Below are positions 5,563 to 27,487 of a stretch of 37,474 nt of DNA, piece after piece. This DNA is from an uncultured Candidatus Moduliflexus sp. (GTDB lineage Bacteria; Moduliflexota; Moduliflexia; Moduliflexales; Moduliflexaceae): positions 1-37,474 of the forward strand of contig CAZRSF010000004.1 in assembly GCA_964602655.1 (NCBI GenBank), written 5' to 3'. Numbering within the stretch: position 1 is the stretch's first letter; each line of letters starts with the position of its first letter. The notes beneath the pieces are model-generated. The model was not told the DNA's origin. It did not search any database and saw only the letters and a program-made list of their open reading frames with translations. Both the position numbers and the translations under genes were made by a program.

Positions 5563-6651
5563 TTACAAAAATTCCTCGATAATCTCTTTCATCCGGTGTT
5601 GAAACACGGCCAGATCGAACTGCGCGGCATGGCGGCGAATGGCGGCGGAATCAAATTGTCCGGCGTCGAATTGTTTGACGGTTGCAGCAAGGGCGTCCGC
5701 CGTTTTGGGGAAAAAGAAGCGCCCGGTCTGTTCCGACACGGTTTCTAAGGCGCCGCCGCCGCGATACGCAATGACCGGACGCCCGGACGCCTGCGCCTCA
5801 ACCGGCGTGATGCCGAAATCTTCCTCGCCCGAAAAAATCAACGCCTGACACTTCGACAACGCCTCTCGCACAACCTGATCCGATTGGCGGCCTGCAAACG
5901 TGATATTCGGTTTCGCCGCTTGCGCCAGCCGTTGCCGTTCCGCGCCGTCGCCGATAATCAGCAGCGGCAATCCCAACCGATTGAACGCCTCGACCGCCAC
6001 ATCAATTCGCTTATACGGTTCAAGGCGTGAGACAATCAGAAAATACGATTCAAGACGGTCTGATATGCTGAAATTCGCCATGTCAACCGGAGGATACACA
6101 ACCAGCGCATCCCGGCGATAATATTTCTCGATGCGTTGCGCCACAAAACGCGAAATCGCGATAAACGTATCCACGCGGTCGCTGCTCAACGTGTCCCACA
6201 TCCGCATGTAGGTCAGCAGCGGAGGGACGAGCAGGCGGGCAAAACGGCTATTCCAACTGGTTTCCATGTATTCGTGATACATGTCCCAGGCGTACCGCAG
6301 CGGCGAATAACAATAGCAGATATGACGGGTTTGCGGCGAGGTAATCACGCCTTTGACAACGGAATGGCTGCAACTGAGGACGACATCGAATTCGGAGAGA
6401 TCGAATTGCTCCACCGCCGTCGGCATAAGGGGCAGATACGCTCTGAATTTGCTCGCGCCGAACGGCAGGCGTTGGATAAATGAGGGGCGAATGTCGAAGG
6501 CGCGAAATTCCTCCGGCATCCGATCTGGATGATAGACCGTCGTATAAATTGGCGCGTCCGGGAACATGTCATGCAAATGAGCTAAGACGGCTTCCGCGCC
6601 GCCGCGCCCTCCTGGCGTGGCTAATCCGTCATGGACGATGGCTAATTTCAT
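5563..6651 (-). CDS. Glycosyltransferase family 4 (GT-B, group 1)
   Basis: N-terminal MKLAIVHD...GG start. C-terminal EX7E-type motif EEDFGITPVEAQASGRPVIAYRGGGALETV. 4-bp ATGA overlap with the upstream radical SAM gene. Confidence 0.85.
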   Translation of the reverse strand: MKLAIVHDGLATPGGRGGAEAVLAHLHDMFPDAPIYTTVYHPDRMPEEFRAFDIRPSFIQRLPFGASKFRAYLPLMPTAVEQFDLSEFDVVLSCSHSVVKGVITSPQTRHICYCYSPLRYAWDMYHEYMETSWNSRFARLLVPPLLTYMRMWDTLSSDRVDTFIAISRFVAQRIEKYYRRDALVVYPPVDMANFSISDRLESYFLIVSRLEPYKRIDVAVEAFNRLGLPLLIIGDGAERQRLAQAAKPNITFAGRQSDQVVREALSKCQALIFSGEEDFGITPVEAQASGRPVIAYRGGGALETVSEQTGRFFFPKTADALAATVKQFDAGQFDSAAIRRHAAQFDLAVFQHRMKEIIEEFL

Positions 6652-8087
6652 TTGCTCGCTTTTCGAAAGACTGATTCGGCAATGCGGCGAATCGTCCGGT
6701 TATGCATCAGCAAGTCTTGAATCCGATCATTCACGAAGAGGCTCGCCGCCGCTGTTCCGAAGATGCCGAATCGTTCGAGTTTGCGACGCATAGCAGCTTT
6801 ACGAATCTGCTTGCGGACGCGATGCGCTTGTTTGAGCAGGCGAATGCGTTCGGCGCGAGGAAGTTCCGGCGTCTCGAACAGCGGCTCTTCGTCCCAATGC
6901 GAGGCGTTATTCAGATATTCTTCCGGCTGATGCAGGAAATAATTCTGTTCAGTGATCCATTGAAAAATTTCGGTATTCGGGAACGGAATCAGGTTATAAA
7001 ATTTGGCGTCGAATACCGGATATTTTTGCGCGAATTGCAGGGTATTTTCCACGTCATTCGGCGTTTCGCCCGGCAAGCCGATAATGAAAAAGAGCGTCAC
7101 GTCATAGCCGATTTCGCAGGCGGTTTTGACCGCGCGGTCAATCTCGTCGAGATGTTCCCCTTTTTTAATCGCCTTCAAAATATGCTCGTTCGCGCTTTCC
7201 ACGCCGAACGAGAGATACCGAAAGCCGATTTCGAACATTCGCTTCAGCAGGTCGGCGTCAACGTGATCGGCGCGAATGCCGTTGCCGCAACGAAAGCGGA
7301 AGCCGGTCAGCCCGCGCCGCTCGATTTCGTCGCAGATGCCATAGACGCGATCTCGATGCATCGCAAAATTATCGTCAAGAATTAAGATGTCGCGATACCC
7401 CTGACGATGCCAGTATTCCAATTCATCCACAATCGGCTGGACGCTGCGAAAGCGGCAGGCGCGGCCAATCGTCGTTTTCACCGGGCAGAACGTGCAGGCG
7501 TGCGGGCAGCCGCGCGACGTGACGACGCCGATTTCGCGCGCGACGTATTTGTCTAATTCGAAGTGCTGATATTTCGGAAAGGGCAGACGATCCAATTCCA
7601 TAATAAACCGGCGGTCGCCGGTATAGGCGACGCGCCCGTCTTCGCGGCGATACAACAGACCGCCGATCTGCTCCATCGGCGTGCCTTGACAGAATTCGAC
7701 CAGCGTGTCGTCCCCTTCCAGCGTCACGCCGAAATCTATCGCCGCGCACTCTTCCAACACCTGCGCCCGCAACGTCGAGAGATGCGGGCCGCCCGCGATG
7801 ATCGGAATTTCCGGGAAACGCTGTTTCAATGCCGACAGAATGTCATAGACCGAGCGATGAAACAACGAGGTCATGCTGATGCCGATCAAGTCAGTCTCGA
7901 AGTCTTGAATTTTCTGACTGACCTGCTCGACCGAATAGCCAAGCCCCATATCAATGACTTGATGCGAAATTTCGGCCTGCGACAATTTTTCGGACAGATA
8001 TCCCAGTCCGACCGGCGGACGAACTGCGCCCCATTGACTTTCGAAACTCGGCGGCGCAAGTAATGTGACGCGCTTGAATATTCCCAT
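6648..8087 (-). CDS. B12-binding-domain radical SAM protein (class B radical SAM methyltransferase-like)
   Basis: N-terminal cobalamin-binding-like domain followed by CxxxCxxC (GCPHACTFCP) and an elongated radical SAM core. SD AAGAGGT 8 nt upstream. Confidence 0.8.
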   Translation of the reverse strand: MGIFKRVTLLAPPSFESQWGAVRPPVGLGYLSEKLSQAEISHQVIDMGLGYSVEQVSQKIQDFETDLIGISMTSLFHRSVYDILSALKQRFPEIPIIAGGPHLSTLRAQVLEECAAIDFGVTLEGDDTLVEFCQGTPMEQIGGLLYRREDGRVAYTGDRRFIMELDRLPFPKYQHFELDKYVAREIGVVTSRGCPHACTFCPVKTTIGRACRFRSVQPIVDELEYWHRQGYRDILILDDNFAMHRDRVYGICDEIERRGLTGFRFRCGNGIRADHVDADLLKRMFEIGFRYLSFGVESANEHILKAIKKGEHLDEIDRAVKTACEIGYDVTLFFIIGLPGETPNDVENTLQFAQKYPVFDAKFYNLIPFPNTEIFQWITEQNYFLHQPEEYLNNASHWDEEPLFETPELPRAERIRLLKQAHRVRKQIRKAAMRRKLERFGIFGTAAASLFVNDRIQDLLMHNRTIRRIAESVFRKASK

Positions 8088-8093
8088 CTGTGG

Positions 8094-25608: not shown

Positions 25609-27393
25609 TCAAGATGATGAAATTTCCCGCGTGATCTCTTGTAAATAGGCGCATTCTTCAGAAGAAAGAAATGGGGAAATTTTTTCCCGCACCTCGCGAT
25701 GATACGCATTCACCCAGCGGAGTTCTTCGCAGGTCAGCAGCGTCGCGTCAATCAGGCTTGCGTCAAGCGGGCAGAGCGAAATCGTCTCGAATTGATAGAA
25801 TGTGCCGAATGGCGTTTCTTCTGTCGGAATCACGACGATCAAATTTTCGATCCGAATGCCGTATTCCCCTTCCCGATAGAGTCCCGGCTCATTCGAGCAG
25901 ATCATGCCGAGTTCCAGCGGCGTCTGATTTTCGGGGCGAATCCCTTGCGGCCCTTCGTGGACGCTCAGAAAATGGCCGATGCCATGCCCCGTGCCGTGCC
26001 GGTATTGCAACCCCTCTTTCCAGAGCGCGATTCGCGCTAACGCATCCAATTGCGCTCCGCTTGTGCTCTGCGGAAATTTGGCGGTGGCTAAAGCGATATG
26101 GCCTTTCAAGACGAGCGTAAAATCGCGCGTTTGCTGCTGAGTTGGCGGCGACAGGGCAATCGTACGGGTAATATCGGTTGTGCCGTCGAGATACTGCGCC
26201 CCGGAATCTACCAATAACATGCCTTCCGGCCTGATTGACAGGGCAGAGTCCGGCGCGGCGGTGTAATGGCAGATCGCGCCGTTCGCCTGATACCCGACAA
26301 TCGGATAAAAGCTGAGTCCCTGAAAATGCGCCTGCTGGCTGCGAAAATGATTGAGCGGCTCGACAATCGAGACTTCCGTGAACGGCTCTTTACCGACATG
26401 ACCTTGCAGCCAGTAGAGCCACTTCACCAGCGCGACGCCGTCGCGGAGGTGCGCCTGGCGCGTTCCGTCCAATTCTGTCGCATTTTTGCTCGCTTTCAGA
26501 TGCAAAATAATATTGGACGCGCCAATGAGCACGCAATGATCGGGCGTCGCGTCTTTCACCGCCTGCGAGGTCTTTTCAGGATCAATCAGCACGACGGCCT
26601 GTTCGGGAATGTCTTGTATATACCGCCAAAACTCGTCGTAGCCGGAACAGGAGACGCCGTCCTCTTGCAATGCGGCGGCGACTTCGGCGGACAGTTTGGC
26701 CGGTTCGATAAACAGCCGCGCAGTAGTGTTCGTGATCGCCGCATACGCAATCGTAAACGGATTAAACTCCACATCGCTGCCGCGAATATTGAACATCCAG
26801 ACGATTTCGTCTAAGGTCGAAATCAGGTGAATGTCGGCAGGGAATGTTTGCATTTCATGACGAATTCGCGCAAATTTCGACTGCCGCGTTTCGCCGCTGA
26901 ATGCGATATCCAGCAGGAACACCGGCGTGGCCGGAATCGGCGGGCGGTCTGTCCAGATTAGCGCGGCCAAATCTTCGTCGCGCCAGAACGATACCCGTTT
27001 GGCTTCGAGTGCTTCGGCAAGTTCATCTACCTGTTCGATAGACATGACCGCGCTGTCAAACCCAACCAGCGCCCCTTCCGGCAGTTCTCGCGCGAGCCAT
27101 TCGGTATGCGTCGGCACACCCGGCATTTTCAATTTGAAGAGTTCGATGCCGGAATCGATCAATTGCTGCGCCGCTTGAATAAAATAGCGGGAATCCGTCC
27201 ATAATCCTGCGCGATCTGGCGTCACCACAAGCGTTCCTGCCGAGCCGGTAAAACCTGATAACCACGCCCGCGTTTTCCAGTGCGGCGCGGGGTATTCGCT
27301 CTGATGCGGATCGCCGCTCGCCACAATCCAGACGGCCAAATTGCGCTCTCGCATGAGCGCTCGTAACGCGTGAATTTTTTCCGATGTTGTCAT
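25609..27393 (-). CDS. Xaa-Pro aminopeptidase (M24B family, with N-terminal creatinase-like domain)
   Basis: Start re-picked at MTTSEKIHALRALM (ATG 27393). The ORF track begins at a TTG. M24 metal-ligand regions HGTGHGIGHFLSVHEGPQ and EPGLYREGEYGIRIENL. Confidence 0.85.
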   Translation of the reverse strand: MTTSEKIHALRALMRERNLAVWIVASGDPHQSEYPAPHWKTRAWLSGFTGSAGTLVVTPDRAGLWTDSRYFIQAAQQLIDSGIELFKLKMPGVPTHTEWLARELPEGALVGFDSAVMSIEQVDELAEALEAKRVSFWRDEDLAALIWTDRPPIPATPVFLLDIAFSGETRQSKFARIRHEMQTFPADIHLISTLDEIVWMFNIRGSDVEFNPFTIAYAAITNTTARLFIEPAKLSAEVAAALQEDGVSCSGYDEFWRYIQDIPEQAVVLIDPEKTSQAVKDATPDHCVLIGASNIILHLKASKNATELDGTRQAHLRDGVALVKWLYWLQGHVGKEPFTEVSIVEPLNHFRSQQAHFQGLSFYPIVGYQANGAICHYTAAPDSALSIRPEGMLLVDSGAQYLDGTTDITRTIALSPPTQQQTRDFTLVLKGHIALATAKFPQSTSGAQLDALARIALWKEGLQYRHGTGHGIGHFLSVHEGPQGIRPENQTPLELGMICSNEPGLYREGEYGIRIENLIVVIPTEETPFGTFYQFETISLCPLDASLIDATLLTCEELRWVNAYHREVREKISPFLSSEECAYLQEITREISSS

Positions 27394-27487
27394 AAGGCAA
27401 TAAAAAGGAGCGCAAAGAAGTTCTTGCAAAAGAGGCAGCAACTTCGCCGCGCCCCTGAAGGATTGTTACCTTCCATGTTTATGAGTG

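Follow-up and report, generated by a model that had tools for sequence, protein, structure and literature searches.

Chemosensory pathways that serve purposes other than swimming are common and poorly understood, and they usually act through second-messenger enzymes or unlinked regulators. The Wsp and Dif systems are known examples of chemosensory control over exopolysaccharide, and a CheA kinase with a fused receiver (CheA-REC) paired with a second, receiver-bearing kinase is known from the Che3 system. A 37,474-nucleotide (nt) stretch of an uncultured Candidatus Moduliflexus sp. (GCA_964602655.1, contig CAZRSF010000004.1), hereafter the window, was analysed, in which a CheA-REC gene and a gene for a receiver-GAF-histidine kinase (REC-GAF-HK, or HK) lie directly ahead of 11 predicted glycan genes. 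The reading that we favour, by a small degree, is a receptor-less CheA-REC to REC-GAF-HK phosphorelay, like CheA3/CheS3, which was recruited to head a surface-glycan operon of approximately 16.8 kb (22356-5563, minus strand). It is built on the domain content, the conserved phospho-acceptor and ATP-binding motifs, the gene order, and the overlap of the HK stop codon with the start codon of the first glycosyltransferase gene (GT4a), preceded by AGGAG.

Two features set the locus apart. The kinase pair stands alone, without genes for a methyl-accepting chemotaxis protein (MCP), CheW, CheR, CheB or CheY, and its second kinase is of REC-GAF type with a long insert in the dimerisation and histidine phosphotransfer (DHp) region. 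The pair also forms part of a predicted biosynthetic operon, in which its overlap with the first glycosyltransferase gene is strictly kept throughout the phylum. No description of such an arrangement was found in literature text searches, and the words CheA, polysaccharide and glycosyltransferase are absent from the main text of the KSB3 genome paper (PMC4312070).

In the Che3 pathway of Rhodospirillum centenum, CheA3 phosphorylates the first receiver of CheS3, which switches the CheS3 kinase off, and CheA3's own receiver acts as a phosphate sink (PMC3868531). Che3 controls cyst formation, including the exopolysaccharide coat (PMC3868531). The present locus resembles Che3 in that a CheA-REC gene stands beside a kinase gene starting with a phosphorylatable receiver; this was seen in 9 of 10 loci, and Asp51 of the receiver is invariant. 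However, CheS3 is a REC-REC-PAS protein with an HWE-type core, whereas the kinase here has a REC-GAF architecture, a HisKA-like H-box (AHEINTP) and the long DHp insert. The Che3 cluster also has its own MCP, two CheW, CheR, CheB and CheY3, none of which is nearby here, and it is not fused to biosynthetic genes. A single-domain receiver gene of the CheY3 kind was not found by Pfam in the kinase/glycan cluster.

The Wsp system of Pseudomonas (WspA-F and WspR) is likewise a non-motility-class system with a CheA-REC hybrid and exopolysaccharide output, and the more distant homologues of the window CheA-REC sit in operons of Wsp layout. The output of Wsp is a REC-GGDEF cyclase, i.e., its cyclic di-GMP (c-di-GMP) acts on unlinked pel/psl genes. 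In contrast, the partner here is a REC-GAF-HK, no receptor or adaptation genes accompany the pair in cis, and the kinase genes are embedded in the glycan operon. No GGDEF domain as in WspR was found in the window by Pfam, and the gene after cheA encodes the REC-GAF-HK.

The Dif pathway of Myxococcus xanthus controls exopolysaccharide, and FrzE is a CheA-REC hybrid. The initial annotation had likened the array to these pathways as a chemosensory-like system tied to polysaccharide output. That part fits the homology, as relatives sit in Wsp/Che3-like operons, but Dif/Frz is a loose analogy, and MCP, CheW, CheR, CheB and CheY genes are not nearby. The likeness is that of chemosensory-type kinases in a gliding, surface-living bacterium. 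Dif and Frz are complete Che clusters with MCP, CheW and CheY-type genes, unlinked to biosynthetic genes, and no orthology to them was found here. The CheA3/CheS3 pair is a closer precedent than Dif/Frz.

Two groups of glycan loci were also compared. The Hps system of filamentous cyanobacteria makes the motility-associated polysaccharide of gliding filaments, and the best curated match of one window glycosyltransferase, GT4b, is HpsO. The Hps scores are below the family cutoffs, i.e., 185.8 bits against 575 for HpsO, 76.8 against 550 for HpsP, and 45 against 300 for HpsE; other window genes match HpsP, HpsO, HpsE and HpsN at 23-77 bits, far below cutoff. In Nostoc punctiforme, the hps loci (Npun_F0066-78, R0636-40) and the chemotaxis-like hmp locus (F5960-64) are far apart (PMC10581220). 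These locus tags ruled out a cyanobacterial hmp/hps adjacency as a precedent for linkage in cis. Wzx/Wzy clusters share with the window several family 4 (GT4) and family 2 (GT2) glycosyltransferases, a Wzy_C membrane protein, and sugar-modifying enzymes. Unlike them, the window cluster has no Wzx, priming transferase, or chain-length and export proteins, and a GT-C enzyme (PMT_2) and a B12-binding radical S-adenosylmethionine (SAM) enzyme are among its conserved members.

The CheA-REC hybrid kinase (20149..22356, minus strand, 735 amino acids (aa)) is the first gene of the conserved module, and its start was confirmed by alignment with eight homologues. A P1/Hpt domain (PF01627, 50 bits), HATPase_c (59.5 bits), a CheW-like P5 domain (67.2 bits) and a C-terminal receiver were found by Pfam, and the match to the dimerisation domain H-kinase_dim was borderline (23.2 bits against a cutoff of 23). 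The protein thus has the parts of a CheA-type (class II) histidine kinase, i.e., an Hpt domain with its histidine, P3, P4 and P5. His48 in the VHTLKGS motif, Asp667 of the receiver, and the N, G1 and G2 motifs are invariant in the window protein and the eight homologues. No P2 domain was recognisable by Pfam, and in the alignment the stretch between P1 and P3 is short, unconserved and variable in length. P2 is not universal among CheA proteins, and its absence does not exclude membership. CheA-REC orthologues are 52-87% identical and lie directly upstream of HK in 9 of 10 loci.

The REC-GAF-HK (18022..20127, minus strand, 701 aa) was recognised from Pfam and its sequence features, i.e., receiver Asp51, the GAF domain, the H-box GVAHEINTP with His369, and the N, G1, F and G2 boxes. 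Its DHp region appears to carry a helical insert of approximately 100 aa. Asp51, His369 and the ATP-binding motifs do not vary across an alignment of five sequences. The H-box belongs to the AHEINTP type, and among kinase cores the nearest are CckA, AtoS and EspC; PDB sequence search returned generic matches and no functional refinement. The orthologue set is 54-83% identical, and the next tier drops to 44%. Among 1.84 billion cluster representatives, the GAF-plus-DHp region matched a single full-length cluster at the 50%-identity level (63% identical) and, in a second tier, one protein (37%); every other match was partial. The architecture is therefore narrow in distribution.

Two further scans were made with this kinase. 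A genome-collection scan from the full alignment, with the generic receiver motifs DIEMPKM and MKILIADD as patterns, returned 80 loci, all of unrelated receiver proteins. A metagenome scan with only the GAF/DHp region returned five loci, three of them new, which is a small sample. REC-GAF proteins of Anaerolineae were also seen, on a contig that begins just upstream of the gene and is uninformative on an adjacent CheA (L099).

The HK stop codon and the GT4a start codon overlap as ATGA at 18022-18025, and the same ATGA was found in all 10 independent loci, the window included. AGGAG or AGGAA lies 10-14 nt upstream of it, with AAGAG in one metagenome locus (L006). AGGAG is encoded by the kinase C-terminal tail (K/E)EYLAS, at which five aligned kinases are identical except for the first residue and the final S/A. 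The tail is encoded by ...AGGAGTAT.TGGCATCATGA (18026-18045, minus strand), at the same place in nine loci. The overlap persisted as sequence identity fell to 62% (HK) and 57% (GT4a). Translational coupling would be expected to show just such an ATGA overlap behind a Shine-Dalgarno-like AGGAG, and part of the conservation of the kinase tail may be owed to the ribosome-binding site and start codon that the next gene needs there.

GT4a (16892..18025, minus strand, 377 aa) is a retaining-type family 4 glycosyltransferase by Pfam. HK is the most conserved protein of the module, and HK and GT4a are its two best conserved proteins (62-83% and 57-87% identical across loci). The GT4a orthologue set is 52-96% identical and breaks sharply from generic GT4 proteins, which reach at most 44%. 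The two orthologue sets have at least 24 contig sizes in common, a rough proxy for shared contigs, and the named members of both sets, and the CheA relatives, are only KSB3, Moduliflexus and Vecturithrix. This codistribution, the strict overlap with its internal Shine-Dalgarno-like sequence and the high conservation of both proteins would also suit a direct action of HK on GT4a or on a glycosyltransferase complex, as a stoichiometric partner or by phosphorylation, with coupling that matches the protein amounts. We consider this improbable. GT4a is an ordinary GT4 protein without a receiver or extra domain, whose nearest solved structures by PDB sequence search are MshA, GlgM and PimB' at low similarity, and the complete, conserved catalytic core of HK suggests classical phosphotransfer. 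We know of no histidine kinase that regulates a glycosyltransferase directly.

Ten independent loci were compared, i.e., the window and nine others, with kinases 62-100% identical. In seven of the nine, CheA-REC lies upstream of HK, and GT2 and the later genes follow GT4a. They are the metagenome loci L002 (CheA 76%, HK 83%), L006 (55%, 67%) and L093 (55%, 69%), Candidatus Moduliflexus flocculans L091 (76%, 83%), Candidatus Vecturithrix granuli L007 (52%, 64%), the KSB3 bacterium L094 (52%, 66%), and metagenome locus L095 (HK 64%), whose contig holds only the 3' end of cheA (60% for the C-terminal fragment). Metagenome locus L004 (CheA 60%, HK 71%) has CheA-REC upstream and lacks GT2 and the later genes, with CobD and an aminotransferase after GT4a. 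The KSB3 bacterium L092/L096 (HK 62%) has GT2 and the later genes and no CheA-REC upstream. The order after GT4a, i.e., GT2, GT4b, Wzy_C, PMT_2, GT4c, radical SAM and GT4d, is found wherever the available DNA reaches, except in L004, while methyltransferase and SGNH genes come and go.

The upstream flanks vary by lineage, with a divergent DUF58-SpoIIM-RDD group, a sigma-70 gene, a PAS kinase, or a helicase-domain gene in this position. These changing flanks speak for a part of selection in the conservation of the module. The linkage of the kinase pair to the glycan genes that the initial annotation had proposed is thus physically real and conserved across the phylum, as the HK/GT4a ATGA is kept in 10 of 10 loci, CheA-REC in 9 of 10, and the flanks differ. 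The conserved unit is the approximately 16.8-kb, 13-gene, operon-like block on the minus strand at 22356-5563, and it is typical of the KSB3 / Modulibacteria lineage.

This unit is smaller than the co-directional array of approximately 22 kb, from the pepP-like gene to the last GT4 gene, that had been proposed at first. By open reading frame (ORF) map and Pfam scans, 28 consecutive genes lie on the minus strand from 36783 to 5563. The order is M23 peptidase, ffh, rpsP, rimM, trmD, RNA methyltransferase, rplS, nadA, class-V aminotransferase and rnhB, followed by the pepP-like M24 peptidase, a secreted NAGPA-family protein, dapA, dapB, NUDIX, CheA-REC, REC-GAF-HK and the 11 glycan genes. The unbroken minus strand from 27393 to 5563 agrees with the ORF map and the Pfam domains, and the gaps of at most approximately 122 bp and the ATGA overlaps lie where they had been placed, once gene starts are adjusted to orthologues. 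However, the array does not stop at 27441 and runs on through rnhB and ffh to the M23 peptidase. Because co-directionality is a property of the whole 28-gene stretch, a shared strand by itself makes no link between the kinases and the glycan genes. Tight packing alone is no more than chance for an operon-rich genome, and conservation in relatives lifts it above chance.

With gene starts corrected against orthologues, the pepP/NAGPA gap is approximately 121 nt, the largest in 27393-5563, and it is followed by gaps of 41 nt (NAGPA/dapA) and 62 nt (dapA/dapB), a 1-nt overlap (dapB/NUDIX), the ATGA overlap of NUDIX and CheA at 22353-22356, and a 21-nt gap between CheA and HK. Among the glycan genes, the gaps are 6-50 nt, with two more 4-nt overlaps and one overlap of 17-35 nt, and no intergenic gap within 22356-5563 exceeds 50 nt. 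The shared strand, these short gaps and the overlaps at dapB/NUDIX and NUDIX/cheA would be compatible with one functional unit over the full 22 kb, joining lysine/diaminopimelate metabolism and the NUDIX hydrolase to the signalling and glycan genes. The NUDIX-stop/cheA-start overlap is found elsewhere only in the closest relative, L098 (GCA_041309425.1; CheA 85% identical), whose 3-kb contig is too short to show pepP, NAGPA, dapA and dapB. The junction is therefore real but young, and NUDIX is a lineage-specific upstream neighbour outside the conserved module. A full-length functional unit is very improbable. No homologue of dapA, dapB, NUDIX, NAGPA or pepP was found within 10 kb of the module in eight more distant loci (BLAST, all ORFs), so the 22-kb unit is too large. 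Candidatus Moduliflexus flocculans and L002 have the divergent DUF58-SpoIIM-RDD genes and an intergenic region upstream of cheA instead, the same-strand run extends through ribosomal and tRNA-modification genes, and stable hairpins part pepP, NAGPA-dapA and dapB.

These hairpins had been named as places where the array might be split (23682 and 25508). A 13-bp stem lies in the dapA/dapB gap (23680-23712, minus strand, -23 kcal/mol, z -4.6; no U tract on the transcribed strand), and another 13-bp stem, unrelated to it, follows the pepP stop in the pepP/NAGPA gap (25508-25538, minus strand, -21.4 kcal/mol, z -4.9; no clear U tract). Both are real and very stable, but they cannot split the kinases from the glycosyltransferases because both are upstream of dapB. 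They could be U-tract-independent terminators or elements of RNA processing or stability. If they terminate or process RNA, pepP, NAGPA-dapA, and dapB-NUDIX with the module would be parted from each other. A long hairpin between the convergent GT4d and major vault protein (MVP)-like genes (5490..5559, -39.5 kcal/mol, z -6.4) is a probable bidirectional terminator at the end of the operon.

In 5000-24999, terminator-like matches numbered 26, against 26.7 +/- 5.6 in shuffled sequence, and promoter-like matches 29, against 21 +/- 5.3; neither is more frequent than in shuffled sequence. The minus-strand terminator-like matches lie inside coding sequence except for one at 14279-14263, which covers the stop codon of FkbM and the start codon of GT4b. 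A single transcript over the kinase and glycosyltransferase genes would be in line with this lack of a terminator excess, the gaps of at most 50 nt, the overlaps and the strong hairpin behind GT4d. An Rfam scan of the entire window revealed no riboswitch or leader, not even of the lysine or c-di-GMP kind.

Upstream of cheA, L091 and L002 share a conserved stretch of 250-300 nt that the window lacks. The SpoIIM-RDD pair is located downstream of the glycan cluster in the window (32-1440, plus strand); with DUF58 it lies divergent and upstream of cheA in L091 (4309-6065) and L002 (6566-8322). Because the pair is on the far side and the upstream region is missing, a rearrangement is taken to have put the module behind dapB-NUDIX. 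Since the rearrangement placed it there, the module is probably transcribed from a promoter upstream of or inside dapB-NUDIX, and dapB is probably the first gene of the transcript that carries it in this genome.

An element TGTCAA(G/A)C was seen in four of seven regions upstream of cheA (L091 at approximately 7600-7640, L002 at approximately 9890-9930, L004 and L007). In L091 and L002, a 7-bp inverted repeat (CTTCTTG ... CAAGAAG) encloses it. A role as promoter or operator is possible; loosely shared by four of seven, the element is seen too rarely to call.

The origin of the pair was approached through more distant homologues. CheA-REC homologues of 36-40% identity lie in operons with the order MCP, CheB, CheR and CheA-REC. 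In L008, such an operon (CheA-REC 40% identical) is followed by a REC-cyclase, and in Desulfonema ishimotonii (L009) by a REC-HK plus a REC-GGDEF protein. In L090, the 44%-identical HK homologue lies behind CheA-REC in an operon that also holds CheW, CheB and CheR; the next gene encodes a second REC-HisKA kinase, and there are no glycosyltransferases. Given these complete chemosensory operons of the 'alternative cellular function' type, the kinase pair descends from pathways of the Wsp/Che3 kind. Judging from gene neighbourhoods, the pair lost its receptor and adaptation genes in cis in KSB3 and became the head of the glycan cluster.

By Pfam, no MCP, CheW, CheR, CheB or CheY gene was found in the window, nor in the annotated flanks (at most 10 kb each side) of L002, L004, L006, L007, L091 and L092. 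A complete chemosensory cluster, with MCP, CheW, CheR and CheB beside cheA, is thus absent here, whereas such genes surround the distant homologues L008, L009 and L090. Apart from this, transposase genes (ISL3, rve and DDE_Tnp_1) were seen in L008 at 14586-22682 of an 8-Mb contig; after the Wsp-like operon, they split off two CheW genes and a TonB receptor gene.

In the mechanism that we propose, chemoreceptors from other loci would engage the CheW-like domain of CheA-REC, and CheA-REC would autophosphorylate on His48. The phosphoryl group would pass to its own receiver at Asp667, as a sink, or to HK Asp51, by analogy with the transfer from CheA3 to the first receiver of CheS3. Phosphorylation of the HK receiver and a GAF ligand would set the autokinase/phosphatase state of the HK core at His369. 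HK might then act on a response regulator encoded outside the cluster, or on the expression or activity of the cluster itself. By this route, the sensed conditions would set the output of a glycan or glycoconjugate with methyl and possibly acyl groups, presumably built by the four GT4 enzymes, one GT2 enzyme, the GT-C (PMT_2) enzyme and the Wzy_C protein. The cells thus probably tie surface-glycan production to sensed signals.

Several points weigh against this phosphorelay reading. No response regulator, MCP or CheW gene is near the kinase pair. Four-base overlaps are the commonest overlap type in compact operons, and such an overlap does not prove a functional partnership of HK and GT4a. The co-transcription of the module is a prediction from gene spacing. 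CheA is dispensable in cis because L092/L096 (9584-10000) keeps HK, GT4a and the glycan cluster without an adjacent CheA-REC; by tblastn, no cheA remnant was found there within 10 kb upstream. L004 keeps CheA, HK and GT4a, with CobD and the aminotransferase in place of the glycan genes. All loci come from one phylum, and shared ancestry explains part of the conservation. Finally, without a priming phosphoglycosyl transferase, Wzx and export genes, the predicted cluster is not a self-contained polysaccharide pathway.

Some of these points would also suit kinases that are co-expressed with the glycan genes and control something else, i.e., gliding, type IV pilus activity, filament behaviour or development, so that the linkage would only synchronise the signalling proteins with the slime or sheath glycan. 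The cluster has no output regulator, L004 has the two kinases and GT4a without the remaining cluster, and the homologous pairs elsewhere feed cyclase, GGDEF or kinase outputs rather than glycosyltransferases. KSB3 filaments glide in sugar gradients and have many Che-like genes (PMC4312070). The invariant HK/GT4a overlap in 10 of 10 loci, the constant position of the kinases at the lead of the cluster, and the HK of L092, which stays beside the glycan genes though CheA is gone, all speak against another target, and we regard it as unlikely.

KSB3 bacteria form gliding filaments, live by fermentation and are a cause of bulking in anaerobic reactors; over 60 MCP genes and many Che-like genes are present in their genomes, and how they glide and respond to sugar is unexplained (PMC4312070). 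Beyond the phosphorelay reading, the pair might be a dedicated controller of a motility- or sheath-associated KSB3 glycan, so that slime production would respond directly to the sugar gradients that set off gliding and bulking. Translational coupling, and perhaps physical contact as well, would then bind the kinase firmly to the first glycosyltransferase. This extension is quite unlikely, and if it were true, it would be a new mode of chemosensory output, i.e., a biosynthetic machine controlled directly, with neither a second messenger nor a motor in between. The locus offers a concrete, testable link between signalling and surface glycan in filaments that bulk anaerobic wastewater reactors, and a second natural example in which phosphate flow of the Che3 type, from CheA to a hybrid kinase, could be tested. 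A link to gliding or bulking would raise its interest.

The glycan genes after GT4a were assigned mainly by Pfam, and all lie on the minus strand. They are a class I SAM methyltransferase of the Methyltransf_11/23 kind (15998..16882), present by synteny in only some relatives; a GT2 glycosyltransferase (15180..16001, 273 aa), sub-threshold in NCBIfam and kept in all relatives but L004; and an FkbM-family methyltransferase (14280..15158), above the TIGR01444 cutoff. The position of FkbM is variable, i.e., no related locus has a counterpart here, and in L007 it lies at the far end of the cluster. GT4b (13167..14270) is conserved at 48-69% identity; its match to HpsO (NF038298) at 185.8 bits is followed by the next family at 88.6 bits. 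An SGNH/AlgX-like hydrolase or O-acyl-modifying enzyme (12067..13158, start corrected to 13158) is replaced by a small methyltransferase in more distant relatives.

The Wzy_C-domain membrane protein (10521..12053, 510 aa) was recognised at 34.3 bits against a cutoff of 31.7, is conserved at 45-64% identity, and showed no solved relative in PDB and no closer NCBIfam assignment. The Wzy_C domain is common to polymerases, O-antigen ligases and O-oligosaccharyltransferases. The PMT_2 (GT-C type) membrane glycosyltransferase (9202..10470, 422 aa) is conserved at 50-75% identity and had no match in NCBIfam and PDB sequence searches. GT4c (8094..9236) is a paralogue of GT4a (approximately 33% identical). 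The B12-binding radical SAM enzyme (6648..8087; 73% identical in L092) has HpnJ as its best NCBIfam match (173.7 bits against a cutoff of 577.6), and PDB sequence search gave no functional refinement; it is probably a sugar or lipid C-methylase or a rearranging enzyme. GT4d (5563..6651) is the last module gene, with 68% identity to the start of the last L092 gene.

Among the glycan genes, only the FkbM domain reaches a curated NCBIfam cutoff. No Pfam family for a Wzx flippase, priming phosphoglycosyl transferase, or chain-length and export proteins was found in the 11 glycan genes or the rest of the window. The gene content predicts a cluster that produces or completes a glycan or glycoconjugate bearing methyl and possibly acyl groups. 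The G+C content drops to 42-47% at approximately 10-15 kb (FkbM, GT4b, SGNH, Wzy_C and part of PMT_2), against approximately 52%. These genes are the least conserved or variably present in relatives, and the methyltransferase set is variable. This suggests glycan diversification between strains, as in strain-variable surface-glycan loci.

The Pfam name 'GT4-conflict' raises another explanation, in which the kinases and GT4 genes would belong to a system for phage defence or another kind of conflict. PF20706 matches GT4a, GT4c and GT4d at 20-52 bits, but the same proteins match general GT4 families better, at 78-132 bits, and the neighbours are typical glycan-assembly genes. Such a system is extremely improbable. 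The defence reading was rejected, as PADLOC found nothing for the CheA, HK and GT4 proteins.

Upstream of the module, all on the minus strand, the NUDIX hydrolase (22353..22907) is NudE-like at a sub-threshold NCBIfam score, and its stop overlaps the cheA start. Before it lie dapB (22907..23659, start corrected), dapA, the secreted NAGPA-family 'phosphodiester glycosidase' (24648-25487) directly upstream of dapA, and the pepP-like M24 peptidase (27393-25609). The NAGPA-family gene is glycan-related by its family name and has no counterpart near the module in the other eight loci. Farther upstream, the ffh protein falls in the same 90%-identity cluster as GAK49914.1 of Candidatus Moduliflexus flocculans.

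On the plus strand, converging on the array, SpoIIM, RDD, two unknown ORFs and an 829-aa MVP-like protein were identified by Pfam. The last (2989-5478), convergent to the glycan cluster, had no match in PDB sequence search and PADLOC. It matches the major vault protein 'shoulder' at 96 bits, a vault repeat, and SPFH/Band 7. To our knowledge, vault-protein-like domains are unusual in bacteria.

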